Assembly (NCBI GenBank): GCA_958372075.1
Contig: CATXMO010000001.1
Span: forward strand, 68,797-132,796
Reading direction: 5' to 3'
DNA length: 64,000 nt
Source: an uncultured Collinsella sp.
Lineage (GTDB): Bacteria > Actinomycetota > Coriobacteriia > Coriobacteriales > Coriobacteriaceae
Position numbers and translations under genes: made by a program. This document shows, piece by piece, positions 13,513-63,034 of the stretch; positions within the stretch are counted from its first letter, which is position 1, and each line of letters begins with the position of its first letter. Below the pieces are notes generated by a model. It was given only the letters and a program-made list of their open reading frames with translations. It ran no database searches and was not told where the DNA came from.

Positions 13513-16104
13513 ATGACCGCGTACTATCAGCAGGTGCTCGAGGGCACATACGACAACCACGTGCTTCCGTTTTTGTGGATGAAGGGCGAGAGCCATAAGA
13601 CCATTGCCGAGTATCTGGAAAAGATCGCCGGCGCCGACATCCACGAGGTCTGTCTCGAAAGCCGCCCACACCCCGATTTTTGCGGCGAGGGCTGGTGGCG
13701 CGACTTGCGCTTTGTCATTGACGAGTGCAGGCAGCTGGGCCTTAAGCTCTGGATCTTGGACGACGCGCACTTCCCCACGGGCTTTGCCAACGGCGCCGTC
13801 AAGGAGGCCGTGCCCGAGCTCCGCAAGATCGTGCTCACGCACCGCACGTTCGACATCGTGGGCCCCACGTCCGCCGCGAGCATCGCGCTCGCCAACATGC
13901 TCGACAAAACGGAGCGCTTCTACGGCGTGACATTTATGCAGGACGGCAGCCCCGTCGACGTCGCTTACCGAGTAATCGACGATGCAGACGGCAACCCCAG
14001 CCGCCTGGTCTTCGATGCACCTGCGGGCCTCACGCAGGCATGCGTGATGTTCACGAGCGGCAAGACCTCCTACAACGAGGACTACATCAATATGGTCGAC
14101 CGCGCCTCGGTGGCGCAGCTCATCGATGCTGTCTACGAGCCGCATTTTGAGCATCTGGGCGATGAGTTTGGCAAGACCATCTTGGGCTTTTTCTCCGATG
14201 AGCCCGGATTTGCCAACGAGAAGGGCACCACGGGCCCCGATGGCATCTCGGACACGCTCATCGGCAAGGCCACCGCGCCCCTACCCTGGTCGGCCGAGCT
14301 TGAGCGTCGCCTGCGCGCGGCACTGGGCGAGCGCTACCTGGCCGAGCTCCCGCACCTGTGGGACCGCGAGCCGGCCGGCGCGCACGTACGCCACGTCTAT
14401 ATGGACATCGCGAGCACCCTCTATAAGGAGTGCTTCTGCGACCAGCTCGGAGACTGGTGCCGCGCGCGCGGCGTGCAGTACATCGGCCACGTTATCGAGG
14501 ACAAGGACTGCCACGCGCGCCTGGGCGTGGGCGCCGGGCACTACTTCCGCGCCGTGGGCGGTCAGGACATGGCGGGCGTCGACATCGTGATCAACCAGCT
14601 GGTACCCGGCATGGACCGCGGCCTTCACAGCTACGGACGCGGCGTGTGGGACCTCGAGTTCTATAACTACGTGCTGCCCAAGCTGGGCTCCTCGGCAGCA
14701 CACCTCGACCCCAAAAAGCAGGGGCGCTGCATGGCCGAGGTCTTTGGCGCATTTGGATGGCACGAAGGCCTACGCGAGATGAAGTGGATCGCCGATCATT
14801 TTTTGGTGCGCGGCGTCAATTGGTTTGTGCCGCATGCCTTTAGCATGGCCGCCTTCCCCGACTGGGACTGCCCGCCGCATTTCTATGCGCATGGCCAAAA
14901 CCCCCAGTTTGCACACTTTGGGCAGCTCATGAGCTACATGAACCGTACGGCGAGCCTGCTGAGCGGCGGGCGCGCAACGACCCCGGTGGCGCTTCTCTAC
15001 CATGCGGACGCCGAGTGGACAGGCGAGGCGAACTTTATGCAGCATGCCGCCTCCGAGCTTATGCGCGCGCAGGTCGACTTTGACATCGTGCCGGCAGAGG
15101 CATTTGAGGACGCAGGGCGCTATGCCGTTGAAATTGCCGCAGACGGTAGCGACTTTGGCGTGAACGGCCAGGCATACCGCTGCCTGGTGATGCCCGGAGC
15201 CGAGTTTGTCGGCGGAGCCGTGCTCGACTTTGCCGCGCGCGCCGCAGCCGCAGGTGTTGCCGTGTACGCGCTGGATGAGTTGCCGAGCAAGCGCTACGAC
15301 GGTGATATTGCAGCCCGTGAGGGCTTTGCCTCCGTGGATGCAGCCGCGGTCGCCGGCATCAAGCTCCTGGCAACCGCCGAGCTCGCAGGCACGCTTGCCG
15401 ACGCCGGTATGCAGACCGTGGTTTGTGCCGAGTCCCAGCCCTGGCTGCGCGCACTGCGCTACGAGCGGGCGGGCGAGACCTATCTGATGCTCGTCAACGA
15501 GCATCCCAAGCAGGGTATCTCCACTCAGATTGCGCTTGCCGACGGCATACCCGTTGCAGGCGCGCGCCTCGACCTGCTCAACGGCACCGATCCCGCCGCC
15601 TTTGACGGCACGCTCGAGCTGGCTCCCTACGAGAGCTGCATCGTGGTCCTTGGGGCTACAGGTTCCGCCGGCGCGGCAACTGCTGGAGACGAAGCCACAT
15701 GCGTCGACGGGCCCTGGGCGGTTGCCTTCTCTGCCCCTGGTACCGATGCCTTTGGCGAGTCTGTTGAGCTTGCAGACCTGCACGACCTTTCCTCGGCCGA
15801 GTTCCCCGGCAAGGCCGGCACATTCCGCTACCGGGCCTCCTTTGTCCTGGGCGAAGCGGCCACCCGCACCGTCATCGACCTTGGCGAGGTCTTTGAGACC
15901 GCAACCGTCACCCTCGACGGCAAATCCCTCGGCACCCGCATCTGTCCGCCTTACCGCTTTGAGGCCGCCGCACTTTTAGCCGGTGAGCACGCGCTCACGA
16001 TTGACATCATCAACACCCTCGACCACGCCGTCCCCGACGTGTTCGGCATGACCGAGCCCTCCGAGCCCAGCGGCCTACTCGGTCCCGTCCGCGTGCTCGG
16101 GTAG
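13513..16104 (+). CDS. Large putative glycoside hydrolase (~864 aa), family not assigned
   Basis: The start at ATG 13513 is preceded by AAGGAGGA. The track ORF from 13054 overlaps the AraC gene and is not used. The layout (TIM-barrel-like N-terminal region and a beta-sandwich-like C-terminal region) resembles multidomain glycosidases. Divergent from the AraC regulator. Confidence 0.45.
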   Translation: MTAYYQQVLEGTYDNHVLPFLWMKGESHKTIAEYLEKIAGADIHEVCLESRPHPDFCGEGWWRDLRFVIDECRQLGLKLWILDDAHFPTGFANGAVKEAVPELRKIVLTHRTFDIVGPTSAASIALANMLDKTERFYGVTFMQDGSPVDVAYRVIDDADGNPSRLVFDAPAGLTQACVMFTSGKTSYNEDYINMVDRASVAQLIDAVYEPHFEHLGDEFGKTILGFFSDEPGFANEKGTTGPDGISDTLIGKATAPLPWSAELERRLRAALGERYLAELPHLWDREPAGAHVRHVYMDIASTLYKECFCDQLGDWCRARGVQYIGHVIEDKDCHARLGVGAGHYFRAVGGQDMAGVDIVINQLVPGMDRGLHSYGRGVWDLEFYNYVLPKLGSSAAHLDPKKQGRCMAEVFGAFGWHEGLREMKWIADHFLVRGVNWFVPHAFSMAAFPDWDCPPHFYAHGQNPQFAHFGQLMSYMNRTASLLSGGRATTPVALLYHADAEWTGEANFMQHAASELMRAQVDFDIVPAEAFEDAGRYAVEIAADGSDFGVNGQAYRCLVMPGAEFVGGAVLDFAARAAAAGVAVYALDELPSKRYDGDIAAREGFASVDAAAVAGIKLLATAELAGTLADAGMQTVVCAESQPWLRALRYERAGETYLMLVNEHPKQGISTQIALADGIPVAGARLDLLNGTDPAAFDGTLELAPYESCIVVLGATGSAGAATAGDEATCVDGPWAVAFSAPGTDAFGESVELADLHDLSSAEFPGKAGTFRYRASFVLGEAATRTVIDLGEVFETATVTLDGKSLGTRICPPYRFEAAALLAGEHALTIDIINTLDHAVPDVFGMTEPSEPSGLLGPVRVLG

Positions 16105-16188
16105 CGACCCCGCGCAACAGCCCCTTACGAGACGCCCGGCTTAGCCGGGCGTTTTATTTACCGTTATGATTGATACATCGCGATACGA

Positions 16189-17058
16189 ATGCATGGGAGC
16201 CATATGGATATCAAGCGCAAAATCACCCAGGGCAAGGGGCTCACCCCCACCGAGCAGCAGCTCGGGCAGACGGTTCTCGCCATGGGTGAGAACGTTCGCG
16301 GGCTCTCCATCAAGGAATTTGCGCACCAGACCAATGTCTCCGTCGCGAGCATCCACCGCTTTTGCAAAAAGCTCGGCCTTGAGGGCTTTAAGGAGCTCAA
16401 GGTCGAGCTGGTACGCGCAGCCTTGCGCGCAGACTCCGCCGCCGAGGTGGATATCAACTTTCCCTTCGATGCAACCTCCACCCCTGCGCAGGTGATGGAG
16501 CGCATGGAGGGGCTCTACCAGACCACGCTGGCCGAAACGCAGGAGCTGCTCGACTCTGCACAGCTCGACCACGCCGCCAAGCTCATCATGCGCGCCGGCA
16601 CCGTGGACATCTACACGGGCTCGCATAACCTGTATCCAGCGGGAATGTTCCGCGATCGCCTGCTCTCGTCCGGCAAAAGCGCGACGTGCCACGACAGTGT
16701 CGAGGCGCAGGTGCGTACGGCGCTCGCCTCGGGCCCCGACCATGTGGCAATCGTTATCTCCTACAGCGGCCTTGCCCCCAACCTCAGGGAGATCTTGCCA
16801 ATCCTCAGCAGTCGACATGTCCCGGTCATCGTCATCGGCACGCCGTACTGTGCCCGCATTCACCCCGGCTTTGCCGCCTATCTCACGGTAAGCGACCACG
16901 AGAGCATGACGCACCGCATCACGCAGTTCGCCAGCCATATCGCCGTGCAATACGTACTCGATTCGCTCTATAGCAGCTACTTTGCCAAAGATTACGCCCG
17001 CTGCTCCGAGTTCCTAGAGCGCTCGTTCCCCTACACCCGCCTGCCCGGACTCAAGTAG
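16189..17058 (+). CDS. RpiR/MurR-family transcriptional regulator (HTH_6 plus SIS domain)
   Basis: N-terminal HTH (GLSIKEFAHQTNVSVASIHRFCKKLGLEGFKELK) and a C-terminal SIS-like sugar-phosphate-binding domain. Confidence 0.85.
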   Translation: MHGSHMDIKRKITQGKGLTPTEQQLGQTVLAMGENVRGLSIKEFAHQTNVSVASIHRFCKKLGLEGFKELKVELVRAALRADSAAEVDINFPFDATSTPAQVMERMEGLYQTTLAETQELLDSAQLDHAAKLIMRAGTVDIYTGSHNLYPAGMFRDRLLSSGKSATCHDSVEAQVRTALASGPDHVAIVISYSGLAPNLREILPILSSRHVPVIVIGTPYCARIHPGFAAYLTVSDHESMTHRITQFASHIAVQYVLDSLYSSYFAKDYARCSEFLERSFPYTRLPGLK

Positions 17059-17059
17059 C

Positions 17060-17165
17060 GACGAGCGTGGATTTTTGGACACTCAGATAACGAGCGTGGA
17101 TAATCTCCCACTTTGAGCCCGCACACAGGCCAAAACCGGGAGATTATCCACGCTCATTTTGGGTC
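17060..17165. repeat. B-element copy 1 (~105-nt conserved hairpin repeat)
   Basis: The unit ACGAGCGTGGAT is duplicated, followed by the 18-bp stem GAGCGTGGATAATCTCCC / GGGAGATTATCCACGCTC around a 28-nt loop. Near-identical copies at 34363-34468 and 43288-43395. Confidence 0.8.
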
Positions 17166-17200
17166 CCCTGGGAACGCATGAGGAGGGCGGAAGACAGCCG

Positions 17201-17878
17201 TTATTTGCGAGGCGTCAGCGACGTAAAGAGTCCGTGTTGGTTGCAGTAAAGATATATCCTGCCGCGCCCGGTAATATGGAAGCGCGGCTGCACCGATTGC
17301 TCTGGATAGAGCTTCTTAAAGCAGATGCCGTCCATAGTCGCATATGCCACAAAGCTAATGTAGTGATCCTTGGTCATGGGATGATCGAGCGTGACGTACC
17401 AATCGTCCTCGATGCGCTCGATGGAAAAGGCGTGGTCCGCGTCCGGCTCTTCGGCCTCCTGGGGAAACATCGTGGAGCCACAGCAGCTAAAGCTGCCTTC
17501 TCCGAGCGCGTGCACAACGTTTCCGCAGATAGGGCAAACGTAAAAGACGCCTTTGAGCATATTGCCTGCACGGTTGGCGTTGGCCCGAATGTCACCAGCC
17601 AAAAGCTCGGCCACGCTTATGCCGAGTCTCTGGGCCAAAGGCTCAACGAGGGAAATGTCGGGAAGGCCGCGGCCGGATTCCCACTTGCTGACGGCTTTAT
17701 CGGTCACGCCAAGGCTTTCCGCCAGGGCGCGCTGGGTGAGGCCGCGCTCTTCGCGCAGCTGCTTGATGGCATGCGCTGCCAAAAAAGTATGGGAGGCATT
17801 GGTTTGCCGTGTCTGGTTCATGGGCTGTCCAATCAAATTGAAGAAATGGAGTGAACCGGTTCGACAGTCAGTATCCAT
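17201..17878 (-). CDS. HTH-XRE DNA-binding domain fused to a complete desulfoferrodoxin (2Fe superoxide reductase) domain
   Basis: The N-terminal segment LTQRALAESLGVTDKAVSKWESGRGLPDISLVEPLAQRLGISVAELL is a Cro/C1-type HTH. The C-terminus aligns motif-by-motif with Dfx. Center I: CPICGN...CC. Center II: DHA, DHPMTKDHYI and YCNQHG supply the His/His/His/Cys/His ligands. The start is either 17878 or the internal ATG at 17821. Confidence 0.75.
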   Translation of the reverse strand: MDTDCRTGSLHFFNLIGQPMNQTRQTNASHTFLAAHAIKQLREERGLTQRALAESLGVTDKAVSKWESGRGLPDISLVEPLAQRLGISVAELLAGDIRANANRAGNMLKGVFYVCPICGNVVHALGEGSFSCCGSTMFPQEAEEPDADHAFSIERIEDDWYVTLDHPMTKDHYISFVAYATMDGICFKKLYPEQSVQPRFHITGRGRIYLYCNQHGLFTSLTPRK

Positions 17879-17926
17879 TTGAAGGCCAGGCTCGACAACC
17901 TACGCTGCGTAGACATGCGCCAATCG

Positions 17927-18030
17927 AACGAGCGCGGATTTTTGGACGCTCATCCTGAGTAGTCATTTAAGAACGCCCCAATGACTACTCATTTATGTCT
18001 GTCCCCAATGACTACCAAGGCAACGCCGAT
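17927..18030. repeat. Truncated B-element 5' half plus A-unit repeats
   Basis: CGAGCGCGGATTTTTGGACGCTCA is followed by TCATTTAAGAACGCCCCAATGACTACTCATTTATGTCTGTCCCCAATGACTACCAAGGCAACGCCG. Confidence 0.7.
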
Positions 18031-18039
18031 GTTTTGGCA

Positions 18040-18191
18040 ACGACAGCGAAAACCCGCCAGAGCGAGCAAGGTGCCTTGAAACGAGGCGGCATTGATCTTT
18101 CGATCATGCCGCCGAAGTTGAAAGGCAGATTGCCGCTCTGGCGGGTTTGCAGCGTCGAGCCGTTACGCGGGTTGGTAAACCCGCGTAACTA
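18040..18191 (-). other. Structured 3'-flank element of pyrE (second copy of the 9170-9320 architecture)
   Basis: The stem-loop GTTACGCGGGTT-GGTA-AACCCGCGTAAC (18162-18189) abuts the pyrE stop. A second hairpin GGCGGCATTGATC-TTTC-GATCATGCCGCC lies upstream at ~18086-18114. Base changes relative to copy 1 are compensatory. Confidence 0.5.
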
Positions 18192-18875
18192 CTCCCGAGC
18201 TCCGTACTGCTCGTAGTAGGCGTCGATAGCGGTCTTGAGCTCGTCGTCGATGACGACTTTGCCGTCGATCTCGTGGTTGTAGAGGGTCTCGACGACCTCG
18301 GCCATGGAGACGATGCTCGCGACGGGGAAACCGTACTTGGCCTCGATCTCCTTCTGCGCGGTGGTCACGCCACCCTTGCCGACCTCCATGCGGTTGAGGG
18401 ACACGATGAGGCCCTTGATCTCGACATCGGCAGCAGCCTTGACCTTGGGATAGGTCTCGTCGATGGACTTACCGCTGGTAGTGACGTCCTCGACCATGAC
18501 CACGCGGTCGCCGTCCTGGGGCTCGTAGCCCAGCAGGTTGCCCTTGTCGGCGCCGTGGTCCTTGGCCTCCTTGCGATCGCAGCAGTACTTGACCTCCTTG
18601 CCGTACAGCTCGTGGTAGGCAATTGCGGTCACGACGGCCAGCGGAATACCCTTGTAGGCCGGTCCAAACAGCACGTCAAAGTCGTCGCCAAAGTTATCGT
18701 GGATGGCCTGGGCGTAATACTCGCCCAGCTTCTTGAGCTGGTAGCCCGTCACATAGGCGCCGGCGTTCATAAAGAACGGGGACTGACGGCCGCTCTTGAG
18801 CGTAAAGCTGCCGAATTTAAGAACGTCGGACTCAACCATGAACTTGATGAACTCTTGCTTGTAAGCCTCCATGCG
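18189..18875 (-). CDS. pyrE: Orotate phosphoribosyltransferase
   Basis: PRPP-binding loop VVMVEDVTTSG. Start at MEAYKQEF after a GAGGAG RBS. The longer track ORF is over-extended. Confidence 0.88.
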   Translation of the reverse strand, partial: RMEAYKQEFIKFMVESDVLKFGSFTLKSGRQSPFFMNAGAYVTGYQLKKLGEYYAQAIHDNFGDDFDVLFGPAYKGIPLAVVTAIAYHELYGKEVKYCCDRKEAKDHGADKGNLLGYEPQDGDRVVMVEDVTTSGKSIDETYPKVKAAADVEIKGLIVSLNRMEVGKGGVTTAQKEIEAKYGFPVASIVSMAEVVETLYNHEIDGKVVIDDELKTAIDAYYEQYGARE

Positions 18876-19190
18876 GGCTCCTCTCGTAATCGCGTACGTG
18901 CCTTCCAGTTTAGCGCAGGCAGGGCGCGTTGCGGGCGCGCTTTGGGGCCTCGGCATTCTGTAAAGGCTTTGTCAGGGGCAATGGTTTTCCAAACATTGGG
19001 GTTGACACGGCAAACCCCCTCATCAAGAATACGGGCGGATTGTAACGGGTACGAGATACCCAAAGCGCGCCGCGCCCGGCCTTAAGGAGGTGTGCCATGG
19101 AAGGCAGTCATAGTCGAAAAACCTGCATGTCGCCCTCGGCACGCCGCGAGGATTCCGCGCACGCATAAGCGCCAACAGCCGATCGTCAAA

Positions 19191-19224
19191 ACCACCACAA
19201 AGGTGCCTGTCCCTTTGTGGTGGT
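19191..19224. repeat. CCACCACAAAGG hairpin, copy 1 (13-bp stem)
   Basis: ACCACCACAAAGG-TGCCTGTC-CCTTTGTGGTGGT. The same hairpin occurs at 25829-25864 and 45094-45127, with a remnant at ~22125. Confidence 0.7.
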
Positions 19225-19307
19225 TCGAAAGCATGACGTGAGCGACATCTAGGTTTTTTGAAGCACATACGACACGTACGCTAACTCCCTTCAACAAGGA
19301 GGACCCT

Positions 19308-22076
19308 ATGCTGATGCTCAAAACCGCCACGGTACTCGAAGCCATCTCCAAGCGCCGCCGCACGGCGCGCCCCGCCGCTCATACCGGCATGTCCAAGAAC
19401 ACCATATTCGCCGCCACCCATAGCGCCGAGGATGCCCTCGTGCTGCTCGACGCCACAGCCGACGGCCTCACCGCCGAGCACGCCGCCGAGCGCCTGAGCG
19501 CCGTCGGCCCCAACACCATCGAAGCGCCGACCAAGACGCTCGCCCGCCGCATCGCCGACGCCTTTGTCGACCCCTTCGCCGGCATCCTCGCCGCTCTCGC
19601 GCTGGTCTCGCTCTACATCGACGTGCTCGCCGTGCCCGAACCGCAGCGCGACCCCTCCACGGTCATCGTCATCGGCATCATGCTGCTGGTATCGGGCGGC
19701 ATGAAGTTTATCCAGGAAGCCCGCAGCGGCAATGCGGCCGAGGCCCTCAAGGACCTGGTCTCCAACACCTGCTGTGCCCTGCGCGACGGCGAGCGCATCG
19801 AGATTCCCTTCGACGAGCTCGTCCCCGGCGATGTGATCCGCCTCTCTGCCGGCGATATGGCGCCGGCCGACGCCCGCATCATCACCGCACGCGATCTGTT
19901 TGTGATCGAGTCCGCACTCACCGGCGAGAGCGAGGCCGTCGAGAAGACCGCTGCCATCACCGTCGTCGAGGGTGCCGACGGCTCCGCGCTGTCACTCTCT
20001 GCCTGCAAGAACATCGTCTTTACCGGCACCTCCGTGCAAAACGGCACCGCCATGGCGCTCGTCGTTGCCACCGGCTCGGACACTTACCTGGGCGGCATCG
20101 CCAAGATGCTCAACGGGCGCGGCGAGAAGAGCGCGTTTGACCGCGGCGTCTCGAGCGTCTCCATGCTGCTCGTACGCCTCATGCTCGTTATGGCGCCGGC
20201 CGTCTTTGCCATCAACGTCGCCACCAAGGGCAACGTCATCGACGCGCTGCTGTTCGCCACGAGCGTAGCCGTTGGCATCACGCCGCAGATGCTTCCCGTC
20301 ATCGTGACCACGAGCCTGTCGCAGGGCGCCAAGGACCTCGCCCGTCGTCAGGTTATCGTCAAGGAACTGCCGGCGATCCAAAACCTCGGCGCGATGGACG
20401 TCCTGTGCTGTGACAAGACCGGCACCCTCACCGAGGACCGCATCGTGCTCGAGCGCTACCTCAACACCGACGGCAACGAGGATGCACGCGTGCTGCGCCA
20501 TGCGTTTTTGAACAGCTTCTTCCAGACCGGCCTCAAAAACCTTATCGACCTGGCCGTCATCGACCGTGCCGACGTGACGCCCTCGGCCACAGCGCCCGAT
20601 TCCATGCTGTGCCAGAGCCTGCGCGACCGCTATACCAAGGTCGACGAGGTGCCCTTTGATTTCTCACGCCGTCGCCTGAGCGTAGTTGTCGCCGATGCCC
20701 AAGGCAAAACCCAGATGGTCACCAAGGGCGCTGCCGAGGAAATGCTCGAGATCTGTTCCTTTGTCGAGGTCGATGGCATCGCCCAGCCGCTCAGCGAAAA
20801 TAAGCTCGCCCAGATTCGCAAGCAAGTCGCCGAACTCAATGCCGAGGGCCTGCGCGTGATCGCCGTGGCGCAAAAGACCAATCCGCGCTGCGTGGGTGAG
20901 TTTGGCATCGCCGACGAGTGCGACATGGTGCTGATGGGCTTTTTGGCCTTCCTCGATCCGCCCAAGGCAAGTGCCGCCGGCGCCGTCGCCACCCTCGAGG
21001 CCAAGGGCGTGGCGGTCAAGGTCTTAACCGGCGACAACGACCGCGTGGCCGCCACCGTCTGCGAGCAGATCGGCATCGACGCGAGTAACGTCTTGCTGGG
21101 CTCCGAGATCGATGCGCTCGACGACGCCGAGCTTGCCGAGCGCGCTGAGAAAACTCATCTCTTTGCCAAACTCTCGCCGCTGCAGAAGGCGCGCCTGGTG
21201 CGCGTCATGCGCGAGCTGCTCGGTCACACCGTGGGCTTTATGGGCGACGGCATTAACGACGCCGCCGCCATGCGCGCGAGCGATTGCGGCATCTCGGTCG
21301 ATTCGGCCGTCGACATCGCCAAGGAATCCGCCGATATCATCTTGCTTCAGAAGGACCTGGGCGTGCTCGAGCGCGGCATCATCGAAGGCCGCCGCACCTA
21401 CGGCAACCTGCTCAAGTACCTCAAGACCACGGTGAGCTCCAACTTTGGCAACGTGCTGTCCGTGACCGTCGCGAGCCTGTTCTTGCCGTTTTTGCCCATG
21501 AGCGCCCTGCAGCTGGTGCTGCTGTCGCTGGTCTACGAGATCGTGTGCATCGCGCTGCCGTGGGACACCGTCGACGACGCCTGGACCGCCCGCCCGCGCG
21601 CCTGGGACGCCGCGTCCATCAAGGGCTTCATGCTCGAGCTGGGCCCCGTGAGCTCGCTGTTTGACATCGCGACCTTCGTCGTCCTCTTCTTTGTGGTGTG
21701 CCCCGCAACCGTGGGCGCGAGCTGGGCAGAGCTTGCCGCCGCGGGCAACGTCGCAGGCATGGCGGCCTTTGCGGCGCTCTTCCAGAGCGGATGGTTTGTC
21801 GAGTCCATGTGGTCACAGACGCTCGTGATCCATATGCTGCGCTCCCCGCGCCTGCCGAGCCCGCGCGACCACGCCGCGCCCGCGCTGTGCGCCCTCACCG
21901 TGCTGGGTCTGGCACTCGTCACCTGGCTGCCGGCAAGCCCCATCGCCGATGCGCTGGGCCTCATGCCGCTGCCGCCGAGCTTCTTCGCGCTGCTCGTCGG
22001 CATCGTCACCGCCTATATCGCGCTCACCCAGCTGGTCAAGCGCCGCTACATCGCCCGCCACGGCGAGCTGCTGTAA
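19308..22076 (+). CDS. mgtA: Magnesium-translocating P-type ATPase (MgtA/MgtB type)
   Basis: DKTGTLT phosphorylation site, MGDGINDA hinge and about ten TM segments. 922 aa, typical of MgtA. AAGGAGGA RBS. Confidence 0.9.
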   Translation: MLMLKTATVLEAISKRRRTARPAAHTGMSKNTIFAATHSAEDALVLLDATADGLTAEHAAERLSAVGPNTIEAPTKTLARRIADAFVDPFAGILAALALVSLYIDVLAVPEPQRDPSTVIVIGIMLLVSGGMKFIQEARSGNAAEALKDLVSNTCCALRDGERIEIPFDELVPGDVIRLSAGDMAPADARIITARDLFVIESALTGESEAVEKTAAITVVEGADGSALSLSACKNIVFTGTSVQNGTAMALVVATGSDTYLGGIAKMLNGRGEKSAFDRGVSSVSMLLVRLMLVMAPAVFAINVATKGNVIDALLFATSVAVGITPQMLPVIVTTSLSQGAKDLARRQVIVKELPAIQNLGAMDVLCCDKTGTLTEDRIVLERYLNTDGNEDARVLRHAFLNSFFQTGLKNLIDLAVIDRADVTPSATAPDSMLCQSLRDRYTKVDEVPFDFSRRRLSVVVADAQGKTQMVTKGAAEEMLEICSFVEVDGIAQPLSENKLAQIRKQVAELNAEGLRVIAVAQKTNPRCVGEFGIADECDMVLMGFLAFLDPPKASAAGAVATLEAKGVAVKVLTGDNDRVAATVCEQIGIDASNVLLGSEIDALDDAELAERAEKTHLFAKLSPLQKARLVRVMRELLGHTVGFMGDGINDAAAMRASDCGISVDSAVDIAKESADIILLQKDLGVLERGIIEGRRTYGNLLKYLKTTVSSNFGNVLSVTVASLFLPFLPMSALQLVLLSLVYEIVCIALPWDTVDDAWTARPRAWDAASIKGFMLELGPVSSLFDIATFVVLFFVVCPATVGASWAELAAAGNVAGMAAFAALFQSGWFVESMWSQTLVIHMLRSPRLPSPRDHAAPALCALTVLGLALVTWLPASPIADALGLMPLPPSFFALLVGIVTAYIALTQLVKRRYIARHGELL

Positions 22077-27582: not shown

Positions 27583-27640
27583 GTATCCCCCAACTGCCAC
27601 TCATTTAAGTACGTCCCCAATGAGTACCCAATGAGTAAGC
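27583..27640. repeat. A-unit repeat copy
   Basis: GAGTATCCCCCAACTGCC followed by ACTCATTTAAGTACGTCCCCAATGAGT. Confidence 0.7.
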
Positions 27641-34344: not shown

Positions 34345-34531
34345 GAGTGTCCCCAAGTGCCAAACGAGCGGGGATTTTTGGACACCCAAACAACGAGAGT
34401 GGACAATCTCCCACTTTGAGCCCACAAGCAGGCCAAAAATGGGAGATTATCCACTCTCATTCTGCGGGTACTCATTGGGGACGTACTTAAATGAGTAGTT
34501 TCACTCATTTAAGTGCGTCCCCAATGAGTAG
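34345..34531. repeat. Composite repeat: GAGTGTCCCCAAGTGCC, B-element copy 2 (34363-34468) and an inverted pair of A-units
   Basis: The B stem is GAGAGTGGACAATCTCCC / GGGAGATTATCCACTCTC. A reverse-complement A-unit and a forward A-unit follow. Confidence 0.8.
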
Positions 34532-43222: not shown

Positions 43223-43425
43223 TTAAGTACGTCCCCAATGAGTGGACCAGCGACTAGTCGTTTAAGAACGTCCCCAATGACTAAGACAAAACGAGCGAGG
43301 ATTTTTGGACGCCCAAATGGCGAGAGTGGATAATCTCCCACTTTGAGCCCACAAACAGGCTAAAAACGGGAGATTATCCACTCTCATTCTGCGGGCACTC
43401 ATTTAAGTACGTCCCCAATGAGTGC
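43201..43425. repeat. Composite repeat: GGTGTCCCCAGGGGCC, two A-units, B-element copy 3 (43288-43395) and a terminal A-unit
   Basis: The B stem is GAGAGTGGATAATCTCCC / GGGAGATTATCCACTCTC (perfect). The A-units read ACTCATTTAAGTACGTCCCCAATGAGT. Confidence 0.8.
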
Positions 43426-61148: not shown

Positions 61149-61442
61149 TGGTGCTCCCCATCATTATTCCTCCGGACGCGGCCGCGCGTGCGGCGTCCGG
61201 GGGCTTCTGGATATGTATACGCATGCGCGGGCGGCACGCCGCTCGACGCTTACACCCCGTGCATGCGCAAAAAGCACCTGCATGGGGTCATCGACTGTAT
61301 GGTCGAGGTTTGGATTTCACCTGTAACCTTTCTCTTGACCCTCATTAACCGCAGTAACTATAGCATCAGCATCGCCCTGCGGCATCGAATTTATGCGCTG
61401 CACATTGCAGGCATACCAAACGCTGACGTATCCGTGACATAG

Positions 61443-61640
61443 CCCTTGGGGACGTTCTTAAACGACTAGTCGTCGGGGACGCTCTTTGCGAGCGACAGAA
61501 AAGGACTGCCCAAACTGCCGGCAAAAAAGGAACGTCCCCAAGTGCCGGCCGTTGGGGACAGTCCCCAAGTGCCGAGTTTTCGCAAGACTGTCCCACATGA
61601 CTACTCGTTTAAGCACGTCCCCGATGACTACTCTGTGGTG
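61443..61640. repeat. Cluster of A-unit and GGAACGTCCCCAAGTGCCG modules. The 3' end of the deacetylase gene lies inside it
   Basis: GGGGACGTTCTTAAACGACTAGTCG (reverse-complement A-unit), GGAACGTCCCCAAGTGCCGGCCGTTGGGGACAGTCCCCAAGTGCCG and ACTCGTTTAAGCACGTCCCCGATGACTAC. The deacetylase stop codon is supplied by the last unit. Confidence 0.7.
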
Positions 61641-63034
61641 TCGTCGTCCTTGGGGAGTTGGGGGAACACGGCGTTTTTGGGCATGGAAACCTTGGTGAGC
61701 GAGGTGAGCTTTTTGCTCAATGCCGTGTCCGTCTTGACCAGGTCGCTGAGCGTCACGATCTTGTAGCCGTCGGCGACAAGGCCATCGATAATCTGCGGCA
61801 ACGCCTCGAGCGTCTGCTCGACGGACTCATCGCTATCGGTGAGCAGCACAATATTGCCCGGCGTCACCGAGTCGAGCACGGTCGATACTTGCTCGTCGGC
61901 GCCGTTGAGCAGCCAGTCGCCCGAATCGATATTCCACGAAACCACGGCGGACACCAGGTCCATCGAGTCGATCCAGTTTTGCTCGTCAAACGCGGCGTAG
62001 GGAGCACGCAGCAACATCGTCTCGACGCCGGTCGCCGACTTAATCGCTTCGGTGCCCTTCGTGATCTGCTTGCGCACCGTCTCGCGATCCTCTCCCTTGA
62101 GCGAATCATCGCTGTAGCTGTTGGAGCCGATCTCGCACCCGGCATCGACAATCGCTTTGGCAGTAGCGGGCGAGGCCTCCGCGGCATCGCCCGAAAGGAA
62201 GAATGTCGCCGTGACGCCCTTTTCCTTGAGCACCTGCAAGATCTGCTTGGTCGCGCCGCTCGGGCCCTCGTCAAATGTCAGGGCCACGTACTTTTCGTTG
62301 CCCTTGGGCGCTACGCTTGCGCACTCGACTACGCAGTCGGTGGCGGGCACGACCTCGCCGCGGTCCTGCGTCTTGCCCGACTGCTCGCCGACCCATACCT
62401 CAGAGCGGCCCCGAACACCCCAGGTTTTGACGTACTCAATGGCACCCGTGCCCTCGACCTTAAGCTTTGGCTCGACAGTCTTGGCCTGGACCTCGTGCTT
62501 TTCGTACGCGTTGCGGCCGTCCTTAACCGTCACCTTCTCGCCACCCGTAAGCTCGCGACTATCCCATTTGCCTTGCTTCACGCGCTTGCCGTCGACCTTC
62601 ACCGACAGCTTTTCGCCACCATGGCGCTTGAGCACGCTGTCGTCGACGGCCAGCAGATCGCCGGCATCGTACGTTTCGGTCAGGCTTTGATCGTCGATAA
62701 GATTCTGCAACGTAGAGCCCACGCGTACCGCGGTCTTTTGCCCGTTGAGTTCCACGTCCACGCTGCGGTTGACGTAGCCCACGACGGCAGCGATAAACAG
62801 CACGAGCGCGCAGCCCACGGCGATGAGTGCATAGGGCAGGTGGGACGGTCGGCGCGGCGAGCGCCCGTTGCCGATGCGCGCACTGCGATCGCTAAACCCA
62901 CGGCTATGGTTGAGGTACATCGCGCCGGGCTTACGGCGACGTTGACGCTGACCGCTGGGCAGCTGCCCCAGGTCGCGGCGCGCCGTCGGACGCACACCCG
63001 AGCGCCCGTTTAAGTTAGATCCGTTTTGGCGCAT
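61628..63034 (-). CDS. Polysaccharide deacetylase (NodB homology domain) with N-terminal TM anchor and Arg-rich cytoplasmic tail
   Basis: ALTFDEGP (the TFDDGP-like motif). TM helix LPYALIAVGCALVLFIAAVV. GGGGAG RBS before ATG 63034. Confidence 0.75.
   Translation of the reverse strand: MRQNGSNLNGRSGVRPTARRDLGQLPSGQRQRRRKPGAMYLNHSRGFSDRSARIGNGRSPRRPSHLPYALIAVGCALVLFIAAVVGYVNRSVDVELNGQKTAVRVGSTLQNLIDDQSLTETYDAGDLLAVDDSVLKRHGGEKLSVKVDGKRVKQGKWDSRELTGGEKVTVKDGRNAYEKHEVQAKTVEPKLKVEGTGAIEYVKTWGVRGRSEVWVGEQSGKTQDRGEVVPATDCVVECASVAPKGNEKYVALTFDEGPSGATKQILQVLKEKGVTATFFLSGDAAEASPATAKAIVDAGCEIGSNSYSDDSLKGEDRETVRKQITKGTEAIKSATGVETMLLRAPYAAFDEQNWIDSMDLVSAVVSWNIDSGDWLLNGADEQVSTVLDSVTPGNIVLLTDSDESVEQTLEALPQIIDGLVADGYKIVTLSDLVKTDTALSKKLTSLTKVSMPKNAVFPQLPKDDDTTE

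Follow-up and report, generated by a model that had tools for sequence, protein, structure and literature searches.

Proteins with an N-terminal helix-turn-helix (HTH) domain, a desulforedoxin (Dx) domain, and a superoxide reductase (SOR) unit were catalogued in 2011, when SORGOdb (Lucchetti-Miganeh et al.) placed 19 of them in a class named “HTH-Dx-SOR” (PMC3116461). The class was defined by domain composition alone, and the accessible text of that paper gives no function, operator, biochemistry, or conserved promoter for it. Here, we describe a gene with the same architecture from an uncultured Collinsella sp. The gene lies in a stretch of 64,000 nucleotides (positions 68,797 to 132,796 of contig CATXMO010000001.1, GenBank assembly GCA_958372075.1), which we will call the window. 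Its product has an HTH of the Cro/C1 (XRE) type, then Dx, and then the SOR unit in one polypeptide. JGI names such proteins [quoted passage not shown] and NCBI names them “helix-turn-helix domain-containing protein.” Hence, the architecture is already catalogued, and what is new is a conserved operator and a testable mechanism, not the existence of the chimera.

Little is understood about the way in which strictly anaerobic bacteria of the human gut detect radicals that arise from oxygen, and to our knowledge, there is no description for these groups of a regulator that, like SoxR, is dedicated to sensing superoxide. The HTH-Dx-SOR family is common, and it joins a DNA-binding domain to a site that in SORs reacts with superoxide. 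Taken as a whole, we consider it somewhat probable that the product of this gene, with 206 amino acids, is an iron-binding transcription factor that regulates itself and acts as a trigger enzyme. An earlier note on this DNA, which was made from the sequence alone, had proposed a fusion of a regulator to a desulfoferrodoxin and knew of no characterized member. Our literature search agrees: we found no characterized HTH-Dx-SOR protein and no later paper that uses the class name. TrtA of Treponema denticola looked like a possible member, but it is a 104-amino-acid XRE protein that lacks the Dx-SOR module and is unrelated (PMC12724145).

A conserved palindrome abuts the promoters of HTH-Dx-SOR genes

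For 55 diverse genes of the family, we looked for inverted repeats in the 200 nt upstream. The palindrome CTACG-N3-CGTAG occurred at ten loci that belong to different phyla, and no other palindrome was found in more than three. With up to one mismatch, 43 of the 55 loci have this palindrome. If relaxed variants at the same position are included, then the predicted operator is present at all but one of the 55 loci, and the contig for the last one has almost no upstream sequence. The site in the window (Table 1) lies within 17880–17930, where the earlier note had suggested looking for a palindromic operator, and it turns out to be conserved across phyla.

When the sites are aligned (aCT-CTACG-.ag-CGTAG-G-TTGcc, then 17 nt, then tG.TAta.T), the palindrome is one base upstream of the TTG of a −35 element, and the −10 element is TG-extended. 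The T, T, and G at element positions +14 to +16 are found in 41, 32, and 42 of 42 aligned sites, respectively. The spacing of 17 nt between the −35 and −10 elements is fixed across the family, and the layout is kept in Coriobacteriia, Clostridia, and Treponema. A generic scan for promoters and terminators did not call the promoter in the window (8/12 match) and found nothing useful. Transcription is predicted to start near 17863, with a leader of about 42 nt. Among Collinsella strains, the 110 nt next to the gene, which hold the operator and the promoter, are conserved.

Table 1. Features of the locus, with positions in the window.
Feature	Position	Strand	Details
Predicted operator, 13-bp palindrome CTACGCAGCGTAG	17900..17912		Invariant T before and G after
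21-nt site scored by the position weight matrix, TCTACGCAGCGTAGG	17895–17915		28.1 bits
−35-like element, TTGTCG	17893..17898	−	One base after the palindrome
−10-like element, GATACT	17870..17875	−	17 nt after the −35-like element
Coding sequence of the HTH-Dx-SOR protein	17201..17821	−	206 amino acids, starting MNQTRQ, plus stop codon (17201–17203)
Codons 1–19 of the 225-codon reading frame	17822..17878	−	57 nt; most likely 5' untranslated region and −10 region, noncoding
Cro/C1 (XRE) HTH	17603..17767	−	Residues 19–73 of 206; Pfam HTH_3
Recognition-helix segment, DKAVSKWE	17678..17701	−	Residues 41–48; invariant; also a search pattern in the genome scan
Conserved linker	17546..17602	−	Residues 74–92; N81, N83, and N87 conserved
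Desulforedoxin-like center I	17468..17545	−	Residues 93–118; C96-x2-C99-x13-C113-C114
SOR-like β-sandwich with center II	17213..17449	−	Residues 125–203; ligands H130, H147, H153, C193, and H196
Downstream repeat element	17061..17158	+	Between convergent stop codons with the rpiR-like gene; 25-nt head and hairpin with 31-nt arms
Upstream repeat block	17928..18020	+	25-nt head (17928–17952), then different palindromic modules with GTCCCCAATGACTAC

Three loci have TAAACG-N3-CGTTTA, in which both half-sites are altered symmetrically. Half-sites that change together are expected for the site of a dimer. Also, 29 diverse members of the family (overall identity 40%–71%) all have the same recognition-helix segment, DKAVSKWE, and its invariance is in keeping with that of the AC/GT core of the operator.

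The palindrome is specific to these promoters. With a 21-nt position weight matrix (PWM), the genes' own sites score 19–31 bits. In scans that covered about 5 kb on either side of each gene, no other match of 19 bits or more was found in 704 kb of genome loci around 80 family genes, the window of 64 kb had no match besides the gene's own site, and no second operator was found in 1.45 Mb overall. In public metagenomes, there were 123 exact matches to CTACGNNNCGTAGGTTG, a pattern that included −35 bases and is biased to this promoter layout, and 60 of these matches precede a family gene. If the site had the T at position −1 and a correctly spaced −10 element, then it was nearly always (54 of 55 cases) in front of a family gene; another 47 sites had neither feature and resemble background. 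Overall, a dyad-symmetric target of the kind that XRE factors have was found computationally at 54 of 55 of the family's own promoters and is specific to them.

Could the HTH be purely structural? In the epoxidase HppE, an HTH-like domain is joined to an Fe(II) cupin and does not bind DNA, and if the same were true here, then the upstream element would be bound by some other factor. HppE structures do appear as analogues in whole-length fold searches, but they superpose poorly (root-mean-square deviation [rmsd] of 12–14 Å). This explanation would have to account for the invariant recognition helix, for half-sites that change together, and for a dyad element that accompanies nearly all of the family's promoters in three phyla and is hardly ever found elsewhere. 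A separate factor would also need to co-occur with the gene in all of these lineages. We think that a structural HTH is very improbable. Instead, the conservation of the site and the helix suggests that the protein very probably binds DNA at its own promoter and regulates itself. The proposal that this is an iron-containing DNA-binding protein is strengthened on its DNA-binding side by the palindrome, and the choice that was offered between a sensor and a combined detoxifier and regulator is not touched by this evidence.

The protein begins 19 codons downstream of the first ATG

The window does contain an open reading frame (ORF) of 225 codons on the minus strand (17201..17878), and the gene had been taken to span all of it. 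However, in all of the homologues about 10 residues precede the HTH, and none has the 19-codon extension. In close relatives from Collinsella, there is a stop codon inside the supposed extension. The database representative, which is 99% identical to the window protein, has 206 amino acids. Furthermore, the upstream ATG (17876–17878) falls in the spacer of the predicted promoter, directly before the −10 hexamer. Given these four observations, codons 1–19 of the ORF are almost certainly not translated, the true start is the ATG at 17821, and the longer extent should be replaced by the shorter one. An ORF on the opposite strand (17159–17854, 231 amino acids) is a shadow ORF of the kind that is typical of G+C-rich DNA, and nothing supports its status as a gene.

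A canonical HTH is joined to a divergent desulfoferrodoxin-like module

The N-terminal domain is a clear match to HTH_3 from Pfam (residues 38–92 in the 225-residue numbering, E = 7.9e-16, 58.3 bits versus a cutoff of 23). The C-terminal matches to Pfam are weaker. Desulfoferrodox (PF01880; residues 164–218 in the same numbering) is borderline at 22.3 bits versus a gathering cutoff of 22.2, and Desulfoferrod_N (PF06397; residues 112–137, again in the 225-residue numbering) is at 20.3 bits and under its cutoff of 23. So, of the three Pfam families that had been expected, one is clear, one is just over its cutoff, and one falls short.

With phmmer against PDB, residues 112–218 are collinear with the SOR of Desulfoarculus baarsii (1vzg, E = 8e-9) and with the desulfoferrodoxin of Desulfovibrio desulfuricans (1dfx, E = 2e-6). 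All of the ligands that had been listed for the two iron centers are aligned: CPIC...CC for center I, and the His of ADHAF, DHPM, and DHYI, the Cys of YCNQ, and the His of QHG for center II. In the alignment to the ligands of D. baarsii, the center II pattern H...H-x5-H...C-x2-H is present.

A run of AlphaFold on the single sequence had a predicted local distance difference test (pLDDT) score of 43 and was unusable, so we replaced it with a run on an alignment of 74 sequences. That model (pLDDT = 89.5) has three consecutive folded units. According to Foldseek, the N-terminal domain is similar to the c2 repressor of phage P22 (3jxb, template modeling [TM] score 0.90, rmsd 1.2 Å), which together with the HTH_3 match bears out the description of this domain as a canonical Cro/C1 HTH. 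The C-terminal 125 residues or so are similar to the SOR of D. baarsii (2ji2_A, E = 1.6e-10, TM 0.73), and the SOR-like module is also similar to 1dfx (TM 0.69) and to the SOR of Treponema pallidum (1y07, TM 0.77); with 2ji2 and 1vzg included, the range is 0.69–0.77. The earlier note had named a C-terminal region without the desulfoferrodoxin fold as an outcome that would undo its proposal, and the fold holds. Overall, Pfam, the alignments to PDB, and the model agree on a genuine fusion of an HTH and a desulfoferrodoxin-like module, and both halves have the folds that had been predicted. In the model, the C-terminal module is a desulfoferrodoxin fold with FeCys4 and Fe(His)4Cys ligand sets, yet a divergent one.

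Between the two halves is a conserved linker, in which N81 and N83 never vary and N87 is kept in at least 90% of the sequences (alignment A4); pLDDT is 78–83 there. The conserved Asn residues suggest a coupling of the HTH to the iron module and not a loose tether between them.

The protein had also been described as containing a “complete” desulfoferrodoxin, and this needs to be qualified. All of the ligands are present, but the spacings are shorter than usual and the catalytic Glu-Lys of the EKH motif is absent. Throughout the subfamily, the four Cys of center I are spaced as CX2CX13CC, versus CX2CX15CC in canonical proteins. For center II, the spacings are X16 (H-H) and X39 (H-C), which lie just outside the ranges of 19–27 and 40–63 quoted for 2Fe-SORs (PMC11980386). 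We took these ranges, the motif definition, and the fact that 2Fe-SORs are dimers from that study of the SOR of Clostridioides difficile, which is a canonical 2Fe-SOR and not a member of the class. In place of Glu-Lys before the first His, the window protein reads D-A-D-H. Also, the score for TIGR00320, the equivalog model for desulfoferrodoxin, is 47.0 bits and far under the cutoff of 146.9. Judging from its sequence, the window protein is not an equivalog of desulfoferrodoxin.

Among 63 sequences that are 43%–100% identical, C96, C99, C113, H147, H153, and C193 are invariant. C114 is kept in 59 of them and is replaced by His in the other four. These four (L051, L055, L062, and L063) come from different taxa, and in them the change of C114 to His occurs together with a change of H196 to Asp; they may represent a distinct variant of the metal site.

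The fusion is widespread

Might the fusion be an artifact, with a frameshift, a lost stop codon, or a misassembly joining a regulator to a dfx gene? A frameshift or stop codon between the halves had been named as something that would argue against the chimera. Instead, the same uninterrupted ORF is found in at least 18 independent assemblies of Collinsella (99%–100% identity), and in more than a dozen of these the protein is identical. The window comes from Collinsella aerofaciens or a very close relative. Relatives were confirmed at 591 or more places in a collection with one genome per species. The matches listed include Collinsella, Adlercreutzia, Enterorhabdus, and Enteroscipio from the Coriobacteriia; Oscillospiraceae, Lachnospiraceae, Ruminococcus, Faecalibacterium, and Christensenella from the Clostridia; and Treponema. 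A profile search identified over 4,300 clusters (at 90% identity) with the HTH-Dx-SOR architecture (E ≤ 1e-20), and as described above, the linker is conserved. Because the ORF is intact in so many assemblies, relatives, and clusters, we consider the chance of an artifact to be negligible.

With the C-terminal module alone as the query, we found 454 clusters (at 50% identity; E ≤ 1e-10). Most of these are proteins of about 195 amino acids, which are matched from near residue 77 onward. Others, of about 116 amino acids, belong to the same subfamily and stand alone with no HTH, so the Dx-SOR-like module functions without one. The stand-alone proteins that we compared (P0161–P0254) have the CX2CX13CC spacing and mostly have no Lys before the first His. 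In one of them, P0168, the gene (L201, 3001–3351) is followed by a gene for a short-chain dehydrogenase.

Rare longer proteins in the database, P0190 (488 amino acids) and P0144 (324 amino acids), have a leucine carboxyl methyltransferase (LCM) domain or a TipAS domain, which recognizes antibiotics, after HTH-Dx-SOR. These could be real fusions or gene calls that read through. Two other long variants (L036 and L038) are artifacts of extending an ORF across frame changes or stop codons.

A proposed mechanism

We propose that the protein would dimerize via its SOR-like domain, as 2Fe-SORs do, and that the two HTHs of the dimer would bind the half-sites of the palindrome, which are 9 bp apart. 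With the operator centered near −43.5 and touching the −35 element, binding would repress transcription by blocking region 4 of sigma. Because the promoter looks intrinsically competent (TTG in the −35 element and a TG-extended −10 element), we moderately favor repression by occlusion rather than activation.

When the Fe(His)4Cys center of a SOR is oxidized, a carboxylate becomes bound to the iron and a loop moves. In the window protein, the loop before H130 is acidic (EAEEPDADH). If superoxide or another oxidant oxidizes the Fe(His)4Cys center, or if the iron is lost, then the acidic loop and the linker might be rearranged. The rearrangement, transmitted via the linker, would change the orientation of the HTHs and weaken their binding to DNA, which would relieve repression and lead to more of the protein under oxidative stress. 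The protein itself would probably still reduce superoxide, and so it would be a “trigger enzyme” in control of its own abundance. Within this mechanism, the specific idea that a Fe(His)4Cys SOR center is the sensory module of a one-component transcription factor, which would sense superoxide, O2, or redox state and act via CTACG-N3-CGTAG on its own gene and possibly on others, is plausible and tentative.

Several observations weigh against this mechanism. The sign of regulation could go either way: at OR2, lambda cI uses the same geometry to activate PRM, so an operator centered at −43.5 could instead lead to activation. Given the range that our scans covered around each gene, a dispersed regulon is possible, and the metagenome counts carry the bias of their pattern. 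Upstream of the gene for the stand-alone homologue P0168, the one such locus examined, there is no CTACG-N3-CGTAG operator. As for catalysis, a Lys directly before the first His is absent from all 63 of the aligned sequences (one, L038, has a Lys two positions before). H130 is kept in 52 of 63 and is replaced by Glu, Asp, Gln, or Ala in the other 11, and H196 is kept in 55 of 63 and is replaced by Asp or Cys in 8. The missing Lys of the EKH motif, together with a His ligand that is replaced in a sixth of the members, points to a pure sensor and not to a strictly catalytic role.

As a pure sensor, the SOR-like module would lack efficient catalysis and would be an iron-based sensor of superoxide, O2, or redox state, and the protein would control a dispersed oxidative-stress regulon as well as its own gene. 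The family-wide absence of the EKH Lys favors this, given that this Lys is important for catalysis in canonical SORs. So do the His ligands that have become Asp, Glu, or Gln in roughly 15%–20% of members and the low score for TIGR00320. There is also a precedent in BzdR, which is reported to be an XRE regulator with an enzyme-derived sensor domain (PMC3602430). On the other hand, our scans of the window, of the loci around family genes, and of the 1.45 Mb overall identified no other operator that such a regulon would need. Nor is there a conserved neighboring gene that could be a target: when we clustered the ORFs within 4 kb on either side of the gene in 57 diverse loci, no neighbor was present in more than 7 of them. 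Most members keep the complete set of ligands, and SORs that lack the conserved Lys or Glu have been reported to be active. We consider the pure sensor to be rather unlikely, though it deserves to be taken seriously. The lack of a conserved neighbor, the lack of a second operator, and the existence of stand-alone modules favor a self-contained circuit with a trigger enzyme.

In four loci (for instance L029, 1135–1803), a gene for a flavodoxin-like NADPH-dependent FMN reductase (Flavodoxin_2 and FMN_red in Pfam) lies 12 nt downstream on the same strand. This reductase could be an electron donor or partner. It also bears on the possibility that the protein senses the availability of metal, so that DNA binding would depend on whether the iron sites are occupied (holo versus apo) and not on their redox state, as for a small Fur-like regulator or an iron buffer. 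Each subunit has two conserved iron sites, and self-regulation, which is all that we could detect, might suit a buffer protein. However, there are no recurrent neighbors for iron transport or iron storage, the module specifically has the SOR fold, and what SOR is known to do is to reduce superoxide, and an adjacent FMN reductase suggests electron transfer rather than a supply of iron. A metal-availability sensor thus seems improbable, and we continue to prefer the autoregulated trigger enzyme.

Neighboring genes and intergenic repeats

In the window, the neighbors of the gene include a GH106-like glycosidase, an RpiR-family regulator that is convergent with it, and a P-type ATPase. The gene upstream, which is on the same strand, has a phosphoribosyltransferase domain and is probably pyrE (orotate phosphoribosyltransferase). 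None of the neighbors in the window is linked to oxidative stress.

The pyrE-like gene is followed by inverted repeats at 18041–18064/18134–18157 (24-nt arms) and at 18157–18194 (17-nt arms). The second of these overlaps the stop codon of the gene, and there is no T-tract after them. In two other strains (L002 and L018, alignment A2), another sequence, which also pairs, takes the place of the first stem, which suggests a conserved RNA hairpin.

The gene had been reported to be flanked by “B-element” repeats. Repeats are indeed present on both sides, but they are heterogeneous and belong to families that occur across the window, so they are not specific to the gene. Their heads (17061–17085 and 17928–17952) share 25 nt at 92% identity. 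Of the two, only the downstream one carries the hairpin with 31-nt arms (17089–17158; z = −7.2 for the RNA fold). Including this copy, the window has three copies of an element of about 100 nt in the same orientation (17061–17158, 34364–34462, and 43291–43389). The element consists of a head (ACGAGCGNGGATTTTTGGAC...) and hairpin arms (GAGCGTGGATAATCTCCC... and its complement), and the head is a partial third copy of the arm. From its sequence, it looks like a REP (repetitive extragenic palindrome) or a MITE (miniature inverted-repeat transposable element). An Rfam search of 16000–19500 found chance-level matches alone, such as mir-942 on the repeat hairpin, at 30.7 bits versus a gathering cutoff of 100.

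The upstream block contains a short module, GTCCCCAATGA[C/G]TAC, which has 18 matches in the window with up to three mismatches, as compared to about one expected. These modules (at 17974–18015, 27613–27638, 34468–34531, 43231–43425, and 61439–61657, among other sites) are clustered in intergenic regions, often as inverted pairs and beside the 100-nt element. Among close Collinsella strains, the upstream block is polymorphic, with different modules inserted (L019 and L022 versus 17930–18060 of the window, alignment A2). Since the block varies while the adjacent operator and promoter region is conserved, the repeats appear to be mobile or recombining. They are general intergenic families with no evident part in the function of the gene.

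Significance and comparison with known systems

The operator and promoter make a catalogue entry from 2011 testable, as there is now a 13-bp site, a compact promoter, and a PWM with which to search for a regulon. If the iron site gates DNA binding, then the protein would be a new type of sensor and would offer a compact part with which to build biosensors of superoxide. Otherwise, the family would be a clear case of an enzyme module gaining self-regulation. Were the sensor reading true, this would be a previously unrecognized kind of sensor, and a widespread one in gut bacteria that are strict anaerobes (Collinsella, Oscillospiraceae, Lachnospiraceae, Faecalibacterium, and Treponema).

The window protein resembles two-iron SORs or desulfoferrodoxins (1vzg/2ji1 and 1dfx) in about 107 collinear residues, in both ligand sets, in the HPM..HYI and CNxHG blocks, and in its fold (TM 0.69–0.74). 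It differs from them in that it is just 28% identical or so, has X13 in center I, and has shorter H-H and H-C spacings. Furthermore, acidic or small residues take the place of the Glu-Lys that precedes the first His, some members of the family lack one His ligand, and there are an additional 92 residues of HTH and linker.

With lambdoid repressors (P22 c2, 434, and lambda cI), the protein shares the fold of the HTH (for P22 c2, TM 0.90) and a short dyad operator, which is arranged as 4-5-4 bp here and as 4-6-4 in 434. As at OR2 and PRM, the operator abuts the −35 element of the regulator's own promoter. Unlike those repressors, it has a C-terminal iron protein instead of a peptidase S24 or oligomerization domain, and there is a single operator instead of tandem cooperative sites. 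Also, its gene is chromosomal and is not in a prophage.

The combination of an XRE-type HTH with an enzyme-derived domain that may bind metal is also found in BzdR, in the XRE-cupin regulators PsdR and PuuR, and in HppE (PMC3602430, PMC10965056, and PMC7901475). The principle of the design is that an enzyme is recruited to be a sensor. The domain in the window protein is a SOR β-sandwich with desulforedoxin, in contrast to a cupin or shikimate-kinase-like domain. We know of no SOR-type center that acts as a sensory module.

The proposed logic does have parallels among proteins whose folds and DNA-binding domains are unrelated and which have no Fe(His)4Cys site. PerR and NorR are stress sensors with mononuclear iron, and as we propose here, a reactive species meets protein-bound iron and the binding of DNA changes. 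PutA and BirA are trigger enzymes, and as in the proposed circuit, whether the enzyme represses its own gene depends on its state in catalysis.

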